Source of the DNA: a virus
Lineage: Duplodnaviria > Heunggongvirae > Uroviricota > Caudoviricetes
Direction: 5' to 3' (one strand)
DNA: 5,159 nt
IMG/VR virus record: IMGVR_UViG_3300018477_000004
Location: 1-5,159 of that record
The first letter of the stretch is position 1. Every line of letters begins with the position of its first letter. Both the position numbers and the translations under genes were made by a program. The notes under the pieces are model-generated. The model saw only the letters and a list, made by a program, of their open reading frames with translations, was not told the origin of the DNA and ran no database searches. Below, in pieces: positions 1 to 5,159 of the stretch.

Positions 1-1
1 A

Positions 2-1312
2 AACGGCGGATTGTTGGCTGGTATCGGCGGCGTCAACTCAAACGCTCCGAGCGTAAATGACATCGGCAATACGCTTCAGCTTATCAGGCAGAACAATGAT
101 ATTGAGCGTTCAGGCGCTAACAATGTTGGGCTTACTGCTTTGCAAGGCCTTTCAGGCATTGCAGGGGTGTTTCAGCAGGAAAAGCAGGCTCAGCGGCAGA
201 AAGAATTTCAGCAGGCGTACGCTAATGCTTATGCGTCTGGTGATCGCGGTGCTTTGCGTCAGTTGGCTACTCAATATCCAGACCAGATTGAATCCGTCCG
301 TAAAGGCATGGGGTTCATTGATGAAGACCAGCGTAATTCTATCGGCACCTTAGCGGCTGGCGCACGCCTTGCGTCATCGTCTCCAGAAGCAATGCAATCA
401 TGGCTGCAAAACAACGCCGGTGAGTTAGCTCGTGTTGGCGTTAATCCTCAGGACGTCGCTCAGATGTACCAACAGAACCCGCGGCAGTTCGGCGAATTTG
501 TCGATCACCTGGGGATGAACAGTCTCGGACCCGAAAAATACTTTGACCTACAGGATAAAATGCAGGGTCGCCAGGTTACCATGCGCGGTCAGGATCTGGA
601 TTCGCAAACCGCCGCTCGGAATCAGGCAATCACAATGCGCGGGCAAGATATCCAGGCGAATTTAGGTCAGCAGCGCATTAATCTGGACGCAGAAACAAAC
701 CGCATTAACAACGAAAATAAGCGCCTTGACCGGATGCTATCAGCAGAAACTAACGACCTGAAGCGCCAGGAAATACAGAGCCGCATAGCAGCCAACAACC
801 AGCAGTTGCAGCAGAAGCAGCAAGCGCTAAATGATGGCTACAAAGACGGCATCAACACCCTCACAACCAGCATGTTCACTCTGAACGATATCGTTAGTTC
901 TCCTTCACTTAAGAGCATTACAGGCTTACGTGGAGTAATCCCCAACGTTCCAGGCTCACAGGCTGCAGACACTCAGGCACGACTTGATACCTTTAAATCC
1001 CAAGCATACCTGACAGCGGTTCAGGCCATGCGAGGCATGGGCGCACTTTCTGATGCCGAGGGCAAAAAGCTCGACCAGGCTGTTGGTTCGCTGCAGAACT
1101 CGCAGAGCGAGGAGTCCTTTCGTCGCAACGCTGGCGTCATCCTGAACACGCTCAACCAGAAGCGTAATGAGGCGGTTGGTAAGTACGTTCAGCAAAACGG
1201 TATCAAGCGAGTGGAAGCGCCTCAGGCTTCTATAGATTACCTGAAGCAACACCCCGAGCTGTCAATCGACTTCATTAATCGCTACGGATATCTTCCATCT
1301 TTGGGGCAGTAA
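2..1312 (+). CDS. Internal virion / DNA-ejection protein, P22 gp20-like by position; 5'-partial because the frame is open to the window edge
   Basis: Long ORF in frame 2 with no in-frame stop between position 2 and the TAA at 1310-1312. The track start at 11 is a TTG with no convincing upstream RBS, so the gene most likely begins upstream of the window. The protein is Q/N-rich with a predicted coiled-coil stretch (approx. nt 650-840, '...QQRINLDAETNRINNENKRLDRM...QQLQQKQQALN...'). It sits immediately upstream of, and is translationally coupled to, the SLT-domain ejection protein, as for gp20 before gp16 in P22-like phages. The functional call rests on position and composition, not on recognised sequence identity. 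Confidence 0.8.
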   Translation, partial: NGGLLAGIGGVNSNAPSVNDIGNTLQLIRQNNDIERSGANNVGLTALQGLSGIAGVFQQEKQAQRQKEFQQAYANAYASGDRGALRQLATQYPDQIESVRKGMGFIDEDQRNSIGTLAAGARLASSSPEAMQSWLQNNAGELARVGVNPQDVAQMYQQNPRQFGEFVDHLGMNSLGPEKYFDLQDKMQGRQVTMRGQDLDSQTAARNQAITMRGQDIQANLGQQRINLDAETNRINNENKRLDRMLSAETNDLKRQEIQSRIAANNQQLQQKQQALNDGYKDGINTLTTSMFTLNDIVSSPSLKSITGLRGVIPNVPGSQAADTQARLDTFKSQAYLTAVQAMRGMGALSDAEGKKLDQAVGSLQNSQSEESFRRNAGVILNTLNQKRNEAVGKYVQQNGIKRVEAPQASIDYLKQHPELSIDFINRYGYLPSLGQ

Positions 1313-1640
1313 ATGGCTAATTACCGTGATTTGTTAGAGCAGGCTGGCGCACGTTACGGTGTGCCAGAAGGGTTGATGACTGCACTGGGTGCCAAGGAGT
1401 CTTCTTACAACCCTGCCGCAGTAAGCTCCGCCGGGGCTGTAGGATTGACTCAGGTCATGCCTGGGACATGGCGTGATATGGGTTATACCGATGAGCAAAT
1501 GCAAAACCCCGAATATCAGGCTGACGCTGGCGCGCGCTATCTGGCAAAGATGTACCAGCAGTTTGGTAACTGGCGTGACGCTCTTCAGGCTTATCACGAC
1601 GGTCCCGGCAACGTTATGAAGGCAAAGCGTGGTGAATATA
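1313..1640 (+). other. Lytic transglycosylase (SLT) catalytic domain within the ejection protein
   Basis: The ES, GLTQ and AYHDG motifs occur in the canonical order and spacing for goose-type-lysozyme-like SLT domains. Domain boundaries are approximate. Confidence 0.8.
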
Positions 1641-3706
1641 CGCCAGGACCTGAAGGCCGCGGTTACGTTGATGATCGCTTTGCTCAATGGGCGGGTGACC
1701 CGGTGACAGACTCAACAGTCGAACAGCGCGCCACCTCTGCAAAGGTACATCCTCAGCAAGACCCTAACAACCCGTTTGCACAACTGGAAGCACAGTCATC
1801 CGAACAAGTATCGGCATCAGGCGTGCAGTCAGACCCAAATAATCCATTTGCTCAGATTGAGCAGCAGGCAGCCAGTCAGCAGCCACCTCAACCCGTAAGT
1901 TCTGTCGCACCGAAACCTGTTCAGCAGCAAGGCGGAATAATGTCTGACCTTGGTAATGGACTTGCTGAAACCGGGCGCGGCTTACTACAGGCAGGAATCA
2001 ACGTAGCGAACATACCTGCTGAACTCACTGATGCTGTAACAAGCGCGGCGGCTTGGGCTGGCGGTAAACTCGGCATTGGCGATGGTACATATCAACCAGC
2101 ACCACGAGTAACAACGCAGGGATTAGAGCAGGACTTTGGCCTTCAGCAAGGCGCGCTGACTCCACAAACGACAGAGGGAAGGGTATTTGCTGAAGCATTG
2201 CCTTACCTCACTCCTGCTGGCGTTGAGAGAGCGGCGGTACAGGCACCAACACTTGCTGGTCGAATTGCTCATGGGGCAACTCGACTTCTAGCAGAAAACG
2301 CAGTTGGATCACTTGCTGCAAACAGTGCGAAAGATGATGCGGAAGCACTCGCCACCGATTTAGGCGTTGGTGTGCTGGCTGGCGGTGCTATTAACGCTGC
2401 CGGACGTGGATTAGGTGCTGCTTATCGTGGTGTTCGTGGTTCGATAGCACCAGAAGCGCAACAGGCTATCAGATTTGCAGAACGTGAAGGAGTTCCTCTG
2501 CACACCACAGACCTGTTACAACCCATTTCCCGCGTCGGAAAAATGGCGCAGACGACAGCGGAAAATATCCCCCTGGCTGGCACAAGCGGAATGAGAGCAA
2601 CGCAACAGGAAGCGAGAAGCCAGTTGGTGCAGAGATTTGCTGATAAATTCGGTGAGTATGATCCAGCTGTTGTTATTGACAGCCTTAAAGCGAAAACATC
2701 AGGAATTCGTCGCGCTGCAGGAAATCGACTGGAGCAGGTTCAGAATGCTATGGCGGGAATAAACATTCAGCCTGCAAGAGCAATTCAGCAGATTGATACA
2801 GAAATATCTAACCTGCAGAAGCTTGGTAAGGTTGCTGATAACGAGACTATTTCAAAACTTCAGTCCTATCGTGATGAGCTTGTTCGCAATGCTGGTCCTG
2901 ATGGTCCGGTAAATCTGGATTTGAAGCAATTAAGCGATCTGCGCAGCCAGTTCAGAATGGACGTGAAGGGGGAGCGACCAGTGTTACCAAACCGTTCCGA
3001 TGCTGCCATTCAGCGCGTTTACAAGGCAATGACCGACGATATCAATGGTGCCATTGGTCAGAATCTTGGCAACGATACTCTCCGTAAATATCAGCAGGCC
3101 AATGCCGTCTACGCTGACGAAGCGGCGAAACTAAAGAATACCAGGCTGAAGAATGTTCTCATGAAAGGCGACCTGACGCCGGAAGTTGTCAACAACATGC
3201 TATTCAGCAAGAACAAATCGGAAATTAAGACTCTGTATAACTCAGTTGGTCGTGTTGGCAGGGCGCAAATGCGCAATGGCATCATTGGAAAGGCGATGGA
3301 GAAATCAGGTGGTTCCCCTGACCAGTTCCTTCGGCAGCTTAACATCCTGCAAAACCAGACTGGCATCACATTTAAAGGTCAGGAAGCCGCTTATCTGAAA
3401 GGATTGAAAAACTACCTGCAATCCACGCAGCAGGCTGCAAAAGCGGCAGTAACAACACCAACAGGGCAGCAAACCATCCCGTTCATTATCGGGTATGGGA
3501 CGGCAATGAACCCGGCGACAACTGGCGCAGCGGTAAGCTACGGACTTCTTACTCGCGCCTATGAGAGCGAGCCATTCAGAAATGCAATGCTCCGAATGGC
3601 AAACACCCCACGCGGATCAACAGCGTTTGAGAAAGCCATGCAGCAGGCGCAAAAGGCCATTAACGCCCTGACTCAAGGTGCCAAGTCTGATGCGTTGTCA
3701 GAATAG
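1313..3706 (+). CDS. Large ejection / internal virion protein with N-terminal lytic transglycosylase (SLT) domain; occupies the P22 gp16 position
   Basis: 797-codon ORF from ATG 1313 to TAG 3704-3706, with GGGG 7 nt upstream of the ATG. The N-terminal ~110 residues carry the family-1 lytic transglycosylase motifs: catalytic Glu-Ser in 'GAKESSYNP' (Glu codon 1397-1399), 'GLTQVMPGTW', and 'AYHDGPGNV' (AYNAG-like). These are followed by a low-complexity linker with two DPNNPFAQ(L/I)E repeats, a Gly/Ala-rich segment ('GVGVLAGGAINAAGRGLGAAYRGVRGS', approx. nt 2360-2450) and a long C-terminal region. Confidence 0.93.
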   Translation: MANYRDLLEQAGARYGVPEGLMTALGAKESSYNPAAVSSAGAVGLTQVMPGTWRDMGYTDEQMQNPEYQADAGARYLAKMYQQFGNWRDALQAYHDGPGNVMKAKRGEYTPGPEGRGYVDDRFAQWAGDPVTDSTVEQRATSAKVHPQQDPNNPFAQLEAQSSEQVSASGVQSDPNNPFAQIEQQAASQQPPQPVSSVAPKPVQQQGGIMSDLGNGLAETGRGLLQAGINVANIPAELTDAVTSAAAWAGGKLGIGDGTYQPAPRVTTQGLEQDFGLQQGALTPQTTEGRVFAEALPYLTPAGVERAAVQAPTLAGRIAHGATRLLAENAVGSLAANSAKDDAEALATDLGVGVLAGGAINAAGRGLGAAYRGVRGSIAPEAQQAIRFAEREGVPLHTTDLLQPISRVGKMAQTTAENIPLAGTSGMRATQQEARSQLVQRFADKFGEYDPAVVIDSLKAKTSGIRRAAGNRLEQVQNAMAGINIQPARAIQQIDTEISNLQKLGKVADNETISKLQSYRDELVRNAGPDGPVNLDLKQLSDLRSQFRMDVKGERPVLPNRSDAAIQRVYKAMTDDINGAIGQNLGNDTLRKYQQANAVYADEAAKLKNTRLKNVLMKGDLTPEVVNNMLFSKNKSEIKTLYNSVGRVGRAQMRNGIIGKAMEKSGGSPDQFLRQLNILQNQTGITFKGQEAAYLKGLKNYLQSTQQAAKAAVTTPTGQQTIPFIIGYGTAMNPATTGAAVSYGLLTRAYESEPFRNAMLRMANTPRGSTAFEKAMQQAQKAINALTQGAKSDALSE
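1760..1861 (+). repeat. Two copies of an in-frame 30-nt unit encoding DPNNPFAQ(L/I)E, separated by 42 nt, inside the ejection protein linker
   Basis: Copy 1 is 1760-1789 (gac cct aac aac ccg ttt gca caa ctg gaa) and copy 2 is 1832-1861 (gac cca aat aat cca ttt gct cag att gag). The peptide is conserved but 7 of 10 codons differ at the nucleotide level. Confidence 0.7.
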
Positions 3707-3795
3707 CTTCGCAAACACCAGGAACGTGCAAAAACCAAATATGTAGAACGCAATATTCAGCATATCTCTTTGCATAAATCCTCCGTAACTGATAG

Positions 3796-4056
3796 TTAGC
3801 TGCTGTCTTTTTTATATAGCTCTTTGAGCGTATCAAAGACAATTTTCTTAACCATATCAGATTGTTGTTCTGCCATACGCTCTGCATCGTCAATGTAAAC
3901 TGATGCAGAGCTTTGTTTAGCCAATGATTCTTCAATCGCTGCAATTATCTCTGAGTTCAGAGACCTGTTATTCATCTTCGCACGCTGTTTAATTTTCGCG
4001 TGGAGTTCATGCGGAAGTCTCAAGTGAAACTGCGCCTCGTCGTATTTGCTGTACAT
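3796..4056 (-). CDS. mnt: Mnt-like ribbon-helix-helix (Arc/MetJ family) transcriptional repressor
   Basis: Minus-strand ORF ending at the TAA complement at 3796-3798. The product ('...FHLRLPHELHAKIKQRAKMNNRSLNSEIIAAIEESL...DAERMAEQQSDMVKKIVFDTLKELYKKDSS') closely resembles P22 Mnt as I recall it ('...FNFRMPMEVREKLKFRAEANGRSMNSELLQIV...DAERLADEQSELVKKMVFDTLKDLYKKTT'). The start is placed at the ATG complementary to 4054-4056, which gives a P22-like N-terminal length and has GAGG about 8 nt upstream. The longest ORF would instead start at 4089 (11 codons longer). Confidence 0.85.
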   Translation of the reverse strand: MYSKYDEAQFHLRLPHELHAKIKQRAKMNNRSLNSEIIAAIEESLAKQSSASVYIDDAERMAEQQSDMVKKIVFDTLKELYKKDSS

Positions 4057-4129
4057 CCTTGATGCCTCACCAGTTGGGTGGAATGGCATCGTAACCTACT
4101 GGATAAATACTCAATAGTACCATTTCGGT

Positions 4130-4152
4130 ATGCAATCACATCATGGTTGCAT
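4130..4152. promoter_or_regulatory. Inverted repeat ATGCAA-N11-TTGCAT in the divergent mnt/tailspike intergenic region; candidate operator
   Basis: Perfect 6-bp arms at 4130-4135 and 4147-4152, read directly from the sequence. It lies between the divergently transcribed repressor and tailspike genes and overlaps a possible leftward -10 (complement of 4151-4156 = TATGAT). Any function is inferred. Confidence 0.25.
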
Positions 4153-4166
4153 CATATCATTCGTCT

Positions 4167-4170
4167 GGAG
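4167..4170 (+). promoter_or_regulatory. Shine-Dalgarno (GGAG) for the tailspike gene
   Basis: GGAG sits 7 nt upstream of ATG 4178. Confidence 0.5.
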
Positions 4171-4177
4171 CAATGAA

Positions 4178-4519
4178 ATGTCAGATATCACCGCAAATGT
4201 TGTGGTAAGCATGCCTTCGCAACTCTTCACTATGGCTCGTTCTTTTAAAGCCGTAGCCAATGGCAAAATTTATATCGGTAAAATTGACACTGACCCGGTA
4301 AATCCTGAAAACCAGATTCAGGTTTATGTGGAGAACGAAGACGGTTCTCACGTCCCTGTTTCGCAACCAATCATCATTAACGCTGCTGGTTACCCTGTAT
4401 ATAACGGACAGATTGCCAAATTCGTTACCGTGCAAGGCCATTCTATGGCTGTTTATGATGCGTACGGTGTGCAGCAGTTCTATTTTCCGAATGTGCTTAA
4501 GTATGACCCTGATCAGTTC
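4178..4519 (+). other. Tailspike head-binding (particle-attachment) domain
   Basis: This is the block conserved with P22 gp9 residues ~1-113. Similarity is lost right after 'KYDPDQ(F)'. Confidence 0.8.
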
Positions 4520-5138
4520 AAGATTCTAATAGAAGGAGATGATGGCTATAAATACATACCAAGTCTTAATAAAATAAAATCAGAAATACCAGCAGAATAT
4601 TTTCGAACAATATCTAGCGATGACCAATCAACACTTCAGAATGCTATTGATTATGCAACATCTAAAGGATGGTCAGTATTTCTTGAAACGGATAAAGTAT
4701 ATAGAGTTAGATCTGTCAATGTTTCTTGCATGTTGCGTGGATTCTCTTTCATTGAAAGGATTGAAGGAACATCTGAAACATTGATAAATATGATGAGTGG
4801 AGGTGGATTAAAAGATCTAACTATAAATGGAATGATAACGTCAGGAAATGACACCGTTGGAAATATTGTTTGCCAAGGGTTAACTTCTGTTTTATTTAAG
4901 AATATAAAATCAATTAATGCCGGTGGCCATAACATAACAATTAGAGATACTCCTGAAAATGGAGGAAATACAATTAAAGATTGTTATATTTCAGGAACGC
5001 GTGTTGGATATGGGATTTATCTTAGGAATGTGCGTGGGGAATCAATTAAAAATACAAAGATAACAAAATGTGCTAGTGATGGTCTTGCGTTATCAAATTC
5101 ATCATTTACTGAATCCCCTGTTGAAATTGTTGGTGTAG
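4178..5138 (+). CDS. Tailspike protein, 3'-truncated: P22 gp9-like N-terminal head-binding domain fused to a divergent AT-rich beta-helix receptor-binding module
   Basis: ATG at 4178 with GGAG 7 nt upstream. The frame is open to the window end with no stop, which is probably why the ORF track omits it. The N-terminus '[46 protein letters not shown]...[13 protein letters not shown]...NVLKYDPDQ' is near-identical to the P22 tailspike head-binding domain as I remember it ('[46 protein letters not shown]...'). Downstream of ~4520 the sequence is AT-rich and encodes motifs typical of right-handed parallel beta-helix depolymerases ('[25 protein letters not shown]', repeated 'N-x-I/V-x-x-C...G-x-x-G-I-x-L' rungs). 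The final 21 nt of the window are adapter and are excluded from the CDS. Confidence 0.9.
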
Positions 5139-5159
5139 AGATCGGAAGAGCACACGTCT
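5139..5159. other. Illumina TruSeq adapter sequence (AGATCGGAAGAGCACACGTCT); a sequencing or assembly artefact, not biological sequence
   Basis: Exact 21-nt match to the start of the standard Illumina TruSeq adapter, located at the extreme 3' end of the window. Confidence 0.9.

Follow-up and report, generated by a model that had tools for sequence, protein, structure and literature searches.

We describe here a duplicated ten-residue motif in an ejection protein of P22-like phages, which is present in every intact homologue as two copies at a fixed spacing and is more constrained than the enzyme domain beside it. The pair lies in a 5,159-nucleotide (nt) stretch of viral DNA (positions 1 to 5,159 of IMG/VR record IMGVR_UViG_3300018477_000004; the window, below), which derives from a P22-like (Lederbergvirus-type) phage or prophage, within an open reading frame (ORF) of 797 amino acids (aa) at nt 1313-3706. 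Because residues 108-797 of the encoded protein match phrog_770 'DNA transfer protein' (P22 gp16/Sf6 gp13 family; E 5.5e-239), we identify it as the gp16/gp13 ejection protein, which enters the bacterium before the viral DNA does. Tentatively, we read the two copies as paired docking helices that would fasten its N-terminal lytic transglycosylase (LT; SLT) domain, together with the gp16 N-terminus, to the tube formed by phage gp20.

Both copies are in the frame of this ORF, copy 1 at nt 1760-1789 (GAC CCT AAC AAC CCG TTT GCA CAA CTG GAA) and copy 2 at nt 1832-1861 (GAC CCA AAT AAT CCA TTT GCT CAG ATT GAG). They share 9 of 10 residues and 21 of 30 nt; 2 codons are identical, 7 differ synonymously and 1 carries a Leu/Ile change (CTG/ATT). 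Start to start, the copies are 72 nt (24 aa) apart, with a gap of 42 nt (14 aa). The first-pass annotation of this DNA, made from the letters and their ORFs, had reported two near-identical copies 72 nt apart with one Leu/Ile difference and seven of ten codons synonymously changed, placed in the linker after the SLT domain of an ejection protein; direct reading and a codon by codon comparison agree on position and content, and the Pfam SLT match (aa 7-110) and the phrog_770 match agree on context. A non-overlapping self-match of 9/10 was reached in 0 of 200 shuffles of the whole protein (maximum 8) and in 0 of 5000 shuffles of the linker (maximum 7), and at neither the DNA nor the protein level does the repeat extend beyond the 10-mer. 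We rejected an explanation at the DNA level (a repeat, RNA or recombination signal), because the longest run common to the two copies is 5 nt while the peptide is kept.

Retrieval through the motif itself, with a back-translated DPNNPFAQ pattern scanned against IMG/VR, gave 48 loci, 45 of which hold two matches exactly 72 nt apart; in 2 single-match loci the first copy reads DPDNPFAQIE. An SLT-domain profile and the gp20 tail FINRYGYLP, both independent of the motif, returned the same 50 IMG/VR contigs, so the two-copy rule is not an ascertainment effect. Counted across these 50 contigs, two copies at a 24-residue spacing are found in every intact homologue, the exception being a contig (L112) whose gene is truncated before the motifs; the proposal of a conserved motif thus survived the comparison that could have overturned it. 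The family consensus is DP[NDS]NPFAQ[LIV]E, with variants DP[ND]NPFAQ[LIV]E in copy 1 and DP[NS]NPFAQIE in copy 2, and even L120 and L121, the members furthest from the rest (80% identity in the SLT domain), read DPDNPFAQIE...DPSNPFAQIE. The spacing stays at 24 aa despite indels in the flanks, such as one of 2-3 aa in the pre-motif tether of L120.

Ratios of non-synonymous to synonymous change (pN/pS; Nei-Gojobori counts over seven divergent lineages) are 0.076 for copy 1 and 0.018 for copy 2, as compared with 0.65 for the 14-aa spacer, 0.26 for the 12 residues upstream of the motifs and 0.14 for the LT domain, and point to strong purifying selection on both copies at the protein level. Synonymous changes separate orthologous motif copies in every lineage, and synonymous change from one copy to the other has reached saturation (pS about 0.9-1.1 in the seven lineages). 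These figures bear out the earlier suggestion of purifying selection on a short linear motif rather than a recent slippage duplication; the copy-to-copy divergence is compatible with an old duplication, while not demonstrably beyond saturation.

A mosaic cassette spanning genes 20 and 16

Alignment to Sf6 DNA shows homology over window nt 1-517 and again over nt 1925-3776, and the intervening 1.4 kb is a different module; Sf101 matches the window at 98.5% identity as far as nt 1930, and the two are unrelated from there to nt 3788. At the right junction, Sf101 homology thus ends at nt 1930, and homology to both Sf6 and VSe13 starts at nt 1925. Because these breakpoints bracket the stretch that holds them, we assign the motifs to a mosaic cassette of about 1.4 kb, which comprises the C-terminal ~60% of gp20 (from ~nt 518), the LT domain, the tether, the motifs and a Q/P-rich linker up to aa 206. 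The cassette is joined either to an Sf6-type body, as in the window and in phage IME10, or to an Sf101-type body. Conversely, the same body start, GG[FI][MIL]SDLG..AETGRGLLQAG, stands behind three different N-terminal modules (those of Sf6, BTP1 and the window). In L029 (IMGVR_UViG_3300013354_000001), an extra domain of ~95 aa (gp16 aa 184-280; it contains HLGIFDNPDDATAYAERLH and has no Pfam hit) separates motif 2 from the Q-rich linker, and the body that follows has an Sf6-type start.

Three types of gp16 N-terminal module can be told apart, namely the LT domain with two DPNNPF motifs, MAKAWKDVIASPQYQ... and MKVTANGKTFTFPEGT.... The window protein resembles P22 gp16/Sf6 gp13 in its body (aa 207-797), which is 95.6% DNA-identical to Sf6 gene 13, and in the order gp7-gp20-gp16 (the gp7 position lies outside the window); it differs in that the Sf6 and P22 modules carry neither an LT domain nor DPNNPF. 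Over its full length, the gene is 97% DNA-identical to that of IME10. Fusions of SLT to gp16 with the identical or nearly identical cassette and both motifs are found in IME10, Sf101, Huey, Dewey, APC_JM3.2 and phiKp_30, as well as in Escherichia coli and Shigella prophages, where they are annotated only as 'lytic transglycosylase domain-containing', 'DNA transfer protein' or 'lytic tail fiber protein'. Among 5426 complete E. coli genomes, 70 carry the cassette, each once and on the chromosome only. Damaged cassettes occur in L112/L173, where L112 stops at aa 147, just short of motif 1 (...SAKVPLLIVI, then stop), and in L164, where an out-of-frame piece of gene 20 is fused to the inter-motif spacer; these are either defective prophages or assembly artefacts. 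For two Sf101-type proteins (P0002 and P0122), precomputed annotation places Pfam PF26808.1 over the Q/P-rich linker and body start, and our local Pfam copy does not report this entry for the Sf101 protein.

The cassette travels with one end of gp20. The gp20 tail ...IDYLKQHPELSIDFINRYGYLPSLGQ is present in 50 of 50 cassette contigs and in no other contigs; across them, the C-terminal half of gp20 stays constant, while its N-terminal half can be anything from Sf6-like to highly divergent and the gp16 bodies differ. The other gp16 N-terminal types likewise follow their own gp20 tails. The clearest case is phage g341c when set against BTP1: its gp20 is BTP1-like (90% identical) yet ends in the Sf6-type tail NFSSLWGD and is followed by an Sf6-type gp16 N-terminus, with the junction inside the last ~20 codons of gene 20 and not at the gene boundary. 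This pattern would fit an adaptation of the two protein ends, C-terminal in gp20 and N-terminal in gp16, to each other, as in T7 gp15/gp16; tight linkage would give it too. The module types were compared in L169, L170 and L003 against window positions 1-1930.

Proteins in the gp20 position share a C-terminal pattern, aromatic-x-x-x-aromatic-Gly (window 1190-1309, L184, L161, L172 and L003), with tails FINRYGYLPS in the window, FKQAFGFVPS in L184, YDKTFGAG in L161, FEQTYGIG in L172 and FSSLWGD in Sf6; T7 gp15 ends in ...KFIYGRKE. This tail could be the counterpart of the gp16 N-terminal modules, and it is also present with the motif-less Sf6 type.

The gene order around the 797-aa ORF is that of a P22-like phage, with a gp20-type Inj_translocase ORF directly upstream and a Mnt/Arc gene and a tailspike gene downstream (Table 1); the place of the Mnt/Arc gene, between gene 16 and the tailspike, is the usual position of the immI region in such phages. 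Within gp20 (window ~620-720, aa ~205-235) there is an internal repeat, TMRGQDL...TMRGQDI, with its units 16 residues apart, at a place where Sf6-type gp20 proteins carry VRGQDIQIRGQNIS. The tailspike is 88-95% identical in DNA to those of IME10, Sf101 and Sf6 up to ~nt 4520; the receptor-binding part beyond is low in GC (33-40%) and has no near match in the phage collection.

Table 1. Features of the 5,159-nt window; residue numbers refer to the 797-aa protein
Feature	Position (nt)	Strand	Basis or remark
gp20-type ejection protein, most of the gene	11..1312	+	Pfam Inj_translocase, E 3.5e-67; 5' end outside the window
gp16/Sf6 gp13-type ejection protein, 797 aa, with extra N-terminal module	1313..3706	+	ORF; phrog_770
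Family-1 LT (SLT) domain, aa 1-126, catalytic Glu29-Ser30	1313..1690	+	Pfam SLT, aa 7-110
Pre-motif tether, aa 127-149 (..VEQRATSAKVHPQQ), moderately conserved	1691..1759	+	AlphaFold2 pLDDT 50-70
Motif copy 1, DPNNPFAQLE, aa 150-159	1760..1789	+	pN/pS 0.076; predicted (AlphaFold2) helix 154-168
14-aa spacer AQSSEQVSASGVQS, sequence variable, length fixed	1790..1831	+	pN/pS 0.65
Motif copy 2, DPNNPFAQIE, aa 174-183	1832..1861	+	pN/pS 0.018; predicted (AlphaFold2) helix 178-188
Q/P-rich low-complexity linker, aa 184-206; the cassette's right-hand recombination junction lies at its end	1862..1930	+	Homology breakpoints
gp16/gp13 body, aa 207-797, starts GGIMSDLGNGLAETGRGLLQAG	1931..3706	+	95.6% DNA identity to Sf6 gene 13
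Mnt/Arc-family repressor	3796..4089	-	Pfam Arc, E 9.9e-15; Repressor_Mnt, E 3.2e-14
Tailspike gene, runs past the window end	4178..5159	+	P22-type head-binding N-terminus

Predicted structure of the tether and comparison with T7 gp16

The enzymatic part of the module is clear, with a Pfam SLT (PF01464) match at E 2.8e-25 and 88.6 bits against a cut-off of 21.3, and with catalytic E29 and S30 invariant across 49 aligned sequences. In an AlphaFold2 (AF2) model of aa 1-260, built on the same number of aligned sequences, the LT domain is confident, with a predicted local distance difference test score (pLDDT) above 90 to about aa 110, the tether has a pLDDT of about 50 and aa 189-219 fall below 50. 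Helices are modelled at 154-168 and 178-188, each starting from the Pro of NPF (P154 and P178), at a pLDDT of only about 50. On this low-confidence prediction, the tether is probably disordered with two helix-forming recognition elements, for which DPNN would act as the N-cap.

Helices that begin at the motifs could also mean that these are passive caps, setting the stiffness or length of the tether with no specific partner. The sole repeat protein outside the family found by our HMMER search (P0126; below) lends this some support, as it is LRV/HEAT-like, with an Asn/Pro-rich cap (NPNTP) followed by a helix in units of ~30 residues, compared with 24 here. Generic capping tolerates many sequences, however, whereas here 9-10 residues hardly vary, the pN/pS is lower than in the catalytic domain, and unrelated proteins contain the same heptapeptide; we regard a purely passive role as very unlikely. 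Nor is the protein a tandem structural repeat protein of the LRV/HEAT type, in which many copies are found and the whole unit is conserved: here there are two copies, and the 14-aa remainder is near-neutral (spacer pN/pS 0.65).

The closest parallel to this arrangement is the N-terminal part of T7 gp16 (PDB 7K5C, 6YT5). There, the LT domain spans Y4-V145, the loop behind it A146-P205 and the two small 'tip' helices F206-R224. The gp15-gp16 cryo-electron microscopy structure puts the end of the loop at P205 and the start of the tip helices at F206; these two elements bind HBD3 and the base of the neighbouring gp15 subunit, and one gp16 touches two gp15 subunits (10.1101/2021.01.04.424714). Residues 157-228 have been named the 'molecular tape' (review PMC8954989). 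In our alignment of eight diverse T7-like gp16 N-termini, [AP]PNxP[FY][AGS] is kept at T7 residues 202-208, as part of a longer conserved string, [AP]PNxP[FY][AGS][KE][DQ][FY]W, that falls exactly at the loop/tip boundary and is present even in proteins without an SLT domain (K1F and Providencia phage PSTRCR_128). When the profiles of the two tethers are aligned locally, the best pairing sets QQDPNNPFA against QEAPNxPFA.

Both proteins are the largest ejection protein of their phage, with the LT domain at the extreme N-terminus, where phrog_342 matches aa 3-189 of the window protein (E 1.9e-23), and in both the upstream gene encodes a periplasmic tube protein. In T7 a non-globular tether leads to short helices right after the Pro of a PNxPF[AG]-like sequence, and the low-confidence model of the window protein may show the same. 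The two proteins differ in that T7 has one such element and the window protein two, 24 aa apart, that the tether behind the LT domain measures ~25-50 aa rather than the ~60 of T7, and that there is no sequence similarity outside P-N-x-P-F-A. The LT domain is not specifically T7-like either. T7 gp16 aa 11-126 align with aa 3-112 of the 797-aa protein at E 1.1e-3, a more distant match than that to Slt70 (E 9.6e-11). Foldseek searches with the N-terminal model matched Slt70, Slt and MltE with probability 1.00, and the top hits were Slt70-type enzymes. Because these were generic family-1 LTs and T7 gp16 was absent among the top 50, we dropped the idea that the whole module is specifically T7-derived, and we take the resemblance to the T7 tape as a lead rather than as proof of homology.

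DPxNPF-type motifs in other ejected proteins

An exhaustive HMMER search with aa 141-186 against 1.84 billion representative proteins returned the family only, plus the LRV-type repeat protein and a junk repeat ORF, and the duplicated arrangement is therefore private to this cassette. A word-indexed protein search with the linker only yielded 8 candidates, none of them new, and a scan of genome contigs with the SLT profile added 2 close relatives, the remainder being generic SLT enzymes. Taken alone, the octapeptide DPNNPFAQ would not be diagnostic: a metagenome scan for DPNNPFAQ followed by [LIVMF] gave unrelated hits outside the family, including assorted ORFs and a conserved hydrophobic family with ADPNNPFAQFLY, which is probably a membrane protein. 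A further look-alike, EDPDNPFAQIT at residue 530 of a 647-aa ORF (L125), we took as chance.

Shorter forms of the motif do recur in proteins of ejection type, and they are enriched at the N-termini of large phage proteins. Scans for DPNNPFA and DPTNPFA gave 43 distinct large viral ORFs with a complete 5' end; 7 of these carry DP[NT]NPFA no more than 15 aa from the start, where 1.0 would be expected (P about 5e-5). One of the seven proteins is tape-measure-like. Another is a 920-aa protein (L184) that starts with the motif and is encoded last in a run of genes for 381, 267, 463 and 920 aa, the first of which is weakly gp10-like; a 401-aa protein (L275) also starts with the motif and is flanked by two 'DNA ejection protein' PHROG hits. 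Searches with tblastn of L184 and L275 against cultured phages gave no informative relatives. A second duplication is seen in a 469-aa ORF of L281 (IMGVR_UViG_3300043763_000002; 57% GC), which starts MADPTNPFAGGF... and contains DPTNPFAGGF and DPHDPFKGGF, 22 residues apart; we consider this unrelated protein, with its degenerate second copy, an independent case of a duplicated N-terminal motif of the DPxNPF type.

A distant P22-like podovirus outside the family (L041/L161, a 41.7-kb contig of 35% GC) encodes, in order, a gp10-like protein (Phage_stabilise), a small ORF, a gp7-like protein (phrog_598 'DNA ejection') and two further proteins of 715 and 800 aa. The second of these two (P0128), which holds the gp16 position, has no LT domain and carries VNPNTDPNNPFAQIK at aa 38-52. 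Its sole homologue found (P0129, 42% identical) is encoded in the same gene order, beside a P22-type coat gene, and has DPNLDPTNPFALGK at the same place, the N-terminal flanks being otherwise unrelated. In these distant podoviruses the last two proteins in the ejection position measure 715-725 aa and 800-818 aa.

The recurrence of DPxNPFA at the N-termini of varied ejected or extruded phage proteins, the tape-measure-like one included, suggests a partner common to many phages, which may be a component of the host envelope. The motifs would then dock on a periplasmic or inner-membrane protein, or on the peptidoglycan machinery, and position the LT domain or the channel correctly. Short disordered epitopes serve colicin translocation domains in a similar way, and a pair of motifs at fixed spacing, in a disordered tether beside an enzyme that acts in the periplasm, would suit such a role. 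However, the motif is spread over enterobacterial prophages, a 35%-GC contig and contigs of 54-59% GC, so that a host protein would need to be nearly universal; no known bacterial module that binds the motif was identified, and we found no paper with the string DPNNPF and no description of the motif in the literature. We judge a host partner unlikely.

In several lineages the motif stands at the N-terminus of internal virion proteins or close to it, a tag-like location, and it could also mark a signal that acts before ejection, by binding the portal, the scaffold or another internal protein and so directing the incorporation, positioning or orientation of gp16 in the procapsid. Against this, Sf6- and P22-type gp16 proteins are packaged with wholly different N-terminal modules on a similar body, phages with and without the cassette have closely related flanking virion genes at the DNA level, and the T7 counterpart is observed at a post-ejection interface. 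Such a packaging role seems decidedly unlikely.

Processing, one of the two functions suggested by the first-pass annotation, is in our view the least probable of the readings considered here. Asp-Pro and Asn-Pro bonds are chemically labile, each motif has one of either, and the motifs stand exactly between the enzyme domain and the body, where cleavage, spontaneous or by a protease, would free the LT domain from the membrane-bound body. A labile bond would leave both the conservation of F-A-Q-[LIV]-E and the fixed spacing unexplained, though, and in proteins with the motif at the extreme N-terminus cleavage would release only a few residues. The motifs also do not match the NPTH consensus (FlhB/YscU type) of Asn-Pro autocleavage, since the sequence here is N-P-F-A.

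Proposed docking on the gp20 tube

By comparison with other ejection proteins we favour docking, the other of the two suggested functions, and we give somewhat less than an even chance to its specific form, in which the two motifs fasten the LT domain and the gp16 N-terminus to the gp20 tube as paired docking helices. The DPNN of each copy would probably cap a short amphipathic helix starting at Pro-Phe (PFAQLE...). After ejection into the periplasm, both helices would dock on the gp20 tube, probably on two neighbouring subunits, because a spacing fixed at 24 residues suggests simultaneous binding to two equivalent sites, and would so hold the LT domain and the gp16 N-terminus on the channel, analogous to the T7 gp16 loop and tip helices on gp15. 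The cassette that carries the motifs has been set onto two gp16 bodies at least, and one variant of it has an extra domain in the tether. Both gp20 as the partner and the bivalent geometry are what we infer; gp15 binding is a solved structure in T7, whereas gp20 binding here is reached by inference.

Several observations weigh against docking on gp20. Sf6- and P22-type gp16 proteins work without a DPNNPF motif, and physical linkage within 1.4 kb can also explain the co-inheritance of the gp20 tail. The likeness of the tether to the T7-like tape is not significant as sequence homology, with an hhalign match of P = 0.042 (probability 1.2%, 9 columns) and a co-linear match to the T7-like hidden Markov model of only -2 bits in hmmsearch, and with an LT domain nearer to Slt70 than to T7 gp16 the sequences do not demonstrate common descent of the module with T7 gp16-N. 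An AF2 model of a fusion of the gp20 C-terminus to the gp16 N-terminus, run on the single sequence without an alignment, reached a mean pLDDT of 52, too low to be informative. Finally, because one protein with the N-terminal motif is tape-measure-like, the partner may not be specific to gp20.

A broader reading, which we hold to be doubtful, is that DPxNPF(A) is a short linear motif common to ejected phage proteins across lineages, where it would nucleate assembly of the trans-envelope DNA channel. It would then be duplicated behind an LT domain in P22-like enterobacterial prophages, present in P22-like metagenome contigs, placed at the extreme N-terminus in uncultured podoviruses and represented in T7-like phages by PNxPF at the start of the gp16 tip helix, possibly paired with the aromatic-x-x-x-aromatic-Gly tail of the upstream tube protein.

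The cassette was already in databases under generic names, and the T7 tape was known; new are the strongly selected, duplicated motif with fixed spacing in P22-like phages, the recurrence of the motif at the N-termini of other ejection proteins and its likeness to the T7 loop/tip boundary. It is only now becoming clear, mainly for T7 and P22, how short-tailed phages bring their three ejection proteins together in the periplasm to build a channel for DNA. The motif described here is a mutable ten-residue element, more constrained than the adjacent enzyme domain, which is present in the cultured phages IME10 and Sf101 and has look-alikes in unrelated podoviruses, and as such it offers a precise way to ask whether ejectosomes of the P22 and T7 kinds share a docking device. 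If the motifs do dock on gp20, it would be clear why phages swap the C-terminal end of gp20 and the N-terminal end of gp16 as a single mosaic unit; should they bind a host protein instead, the motif would lead to a new periplasmic dependency factor.

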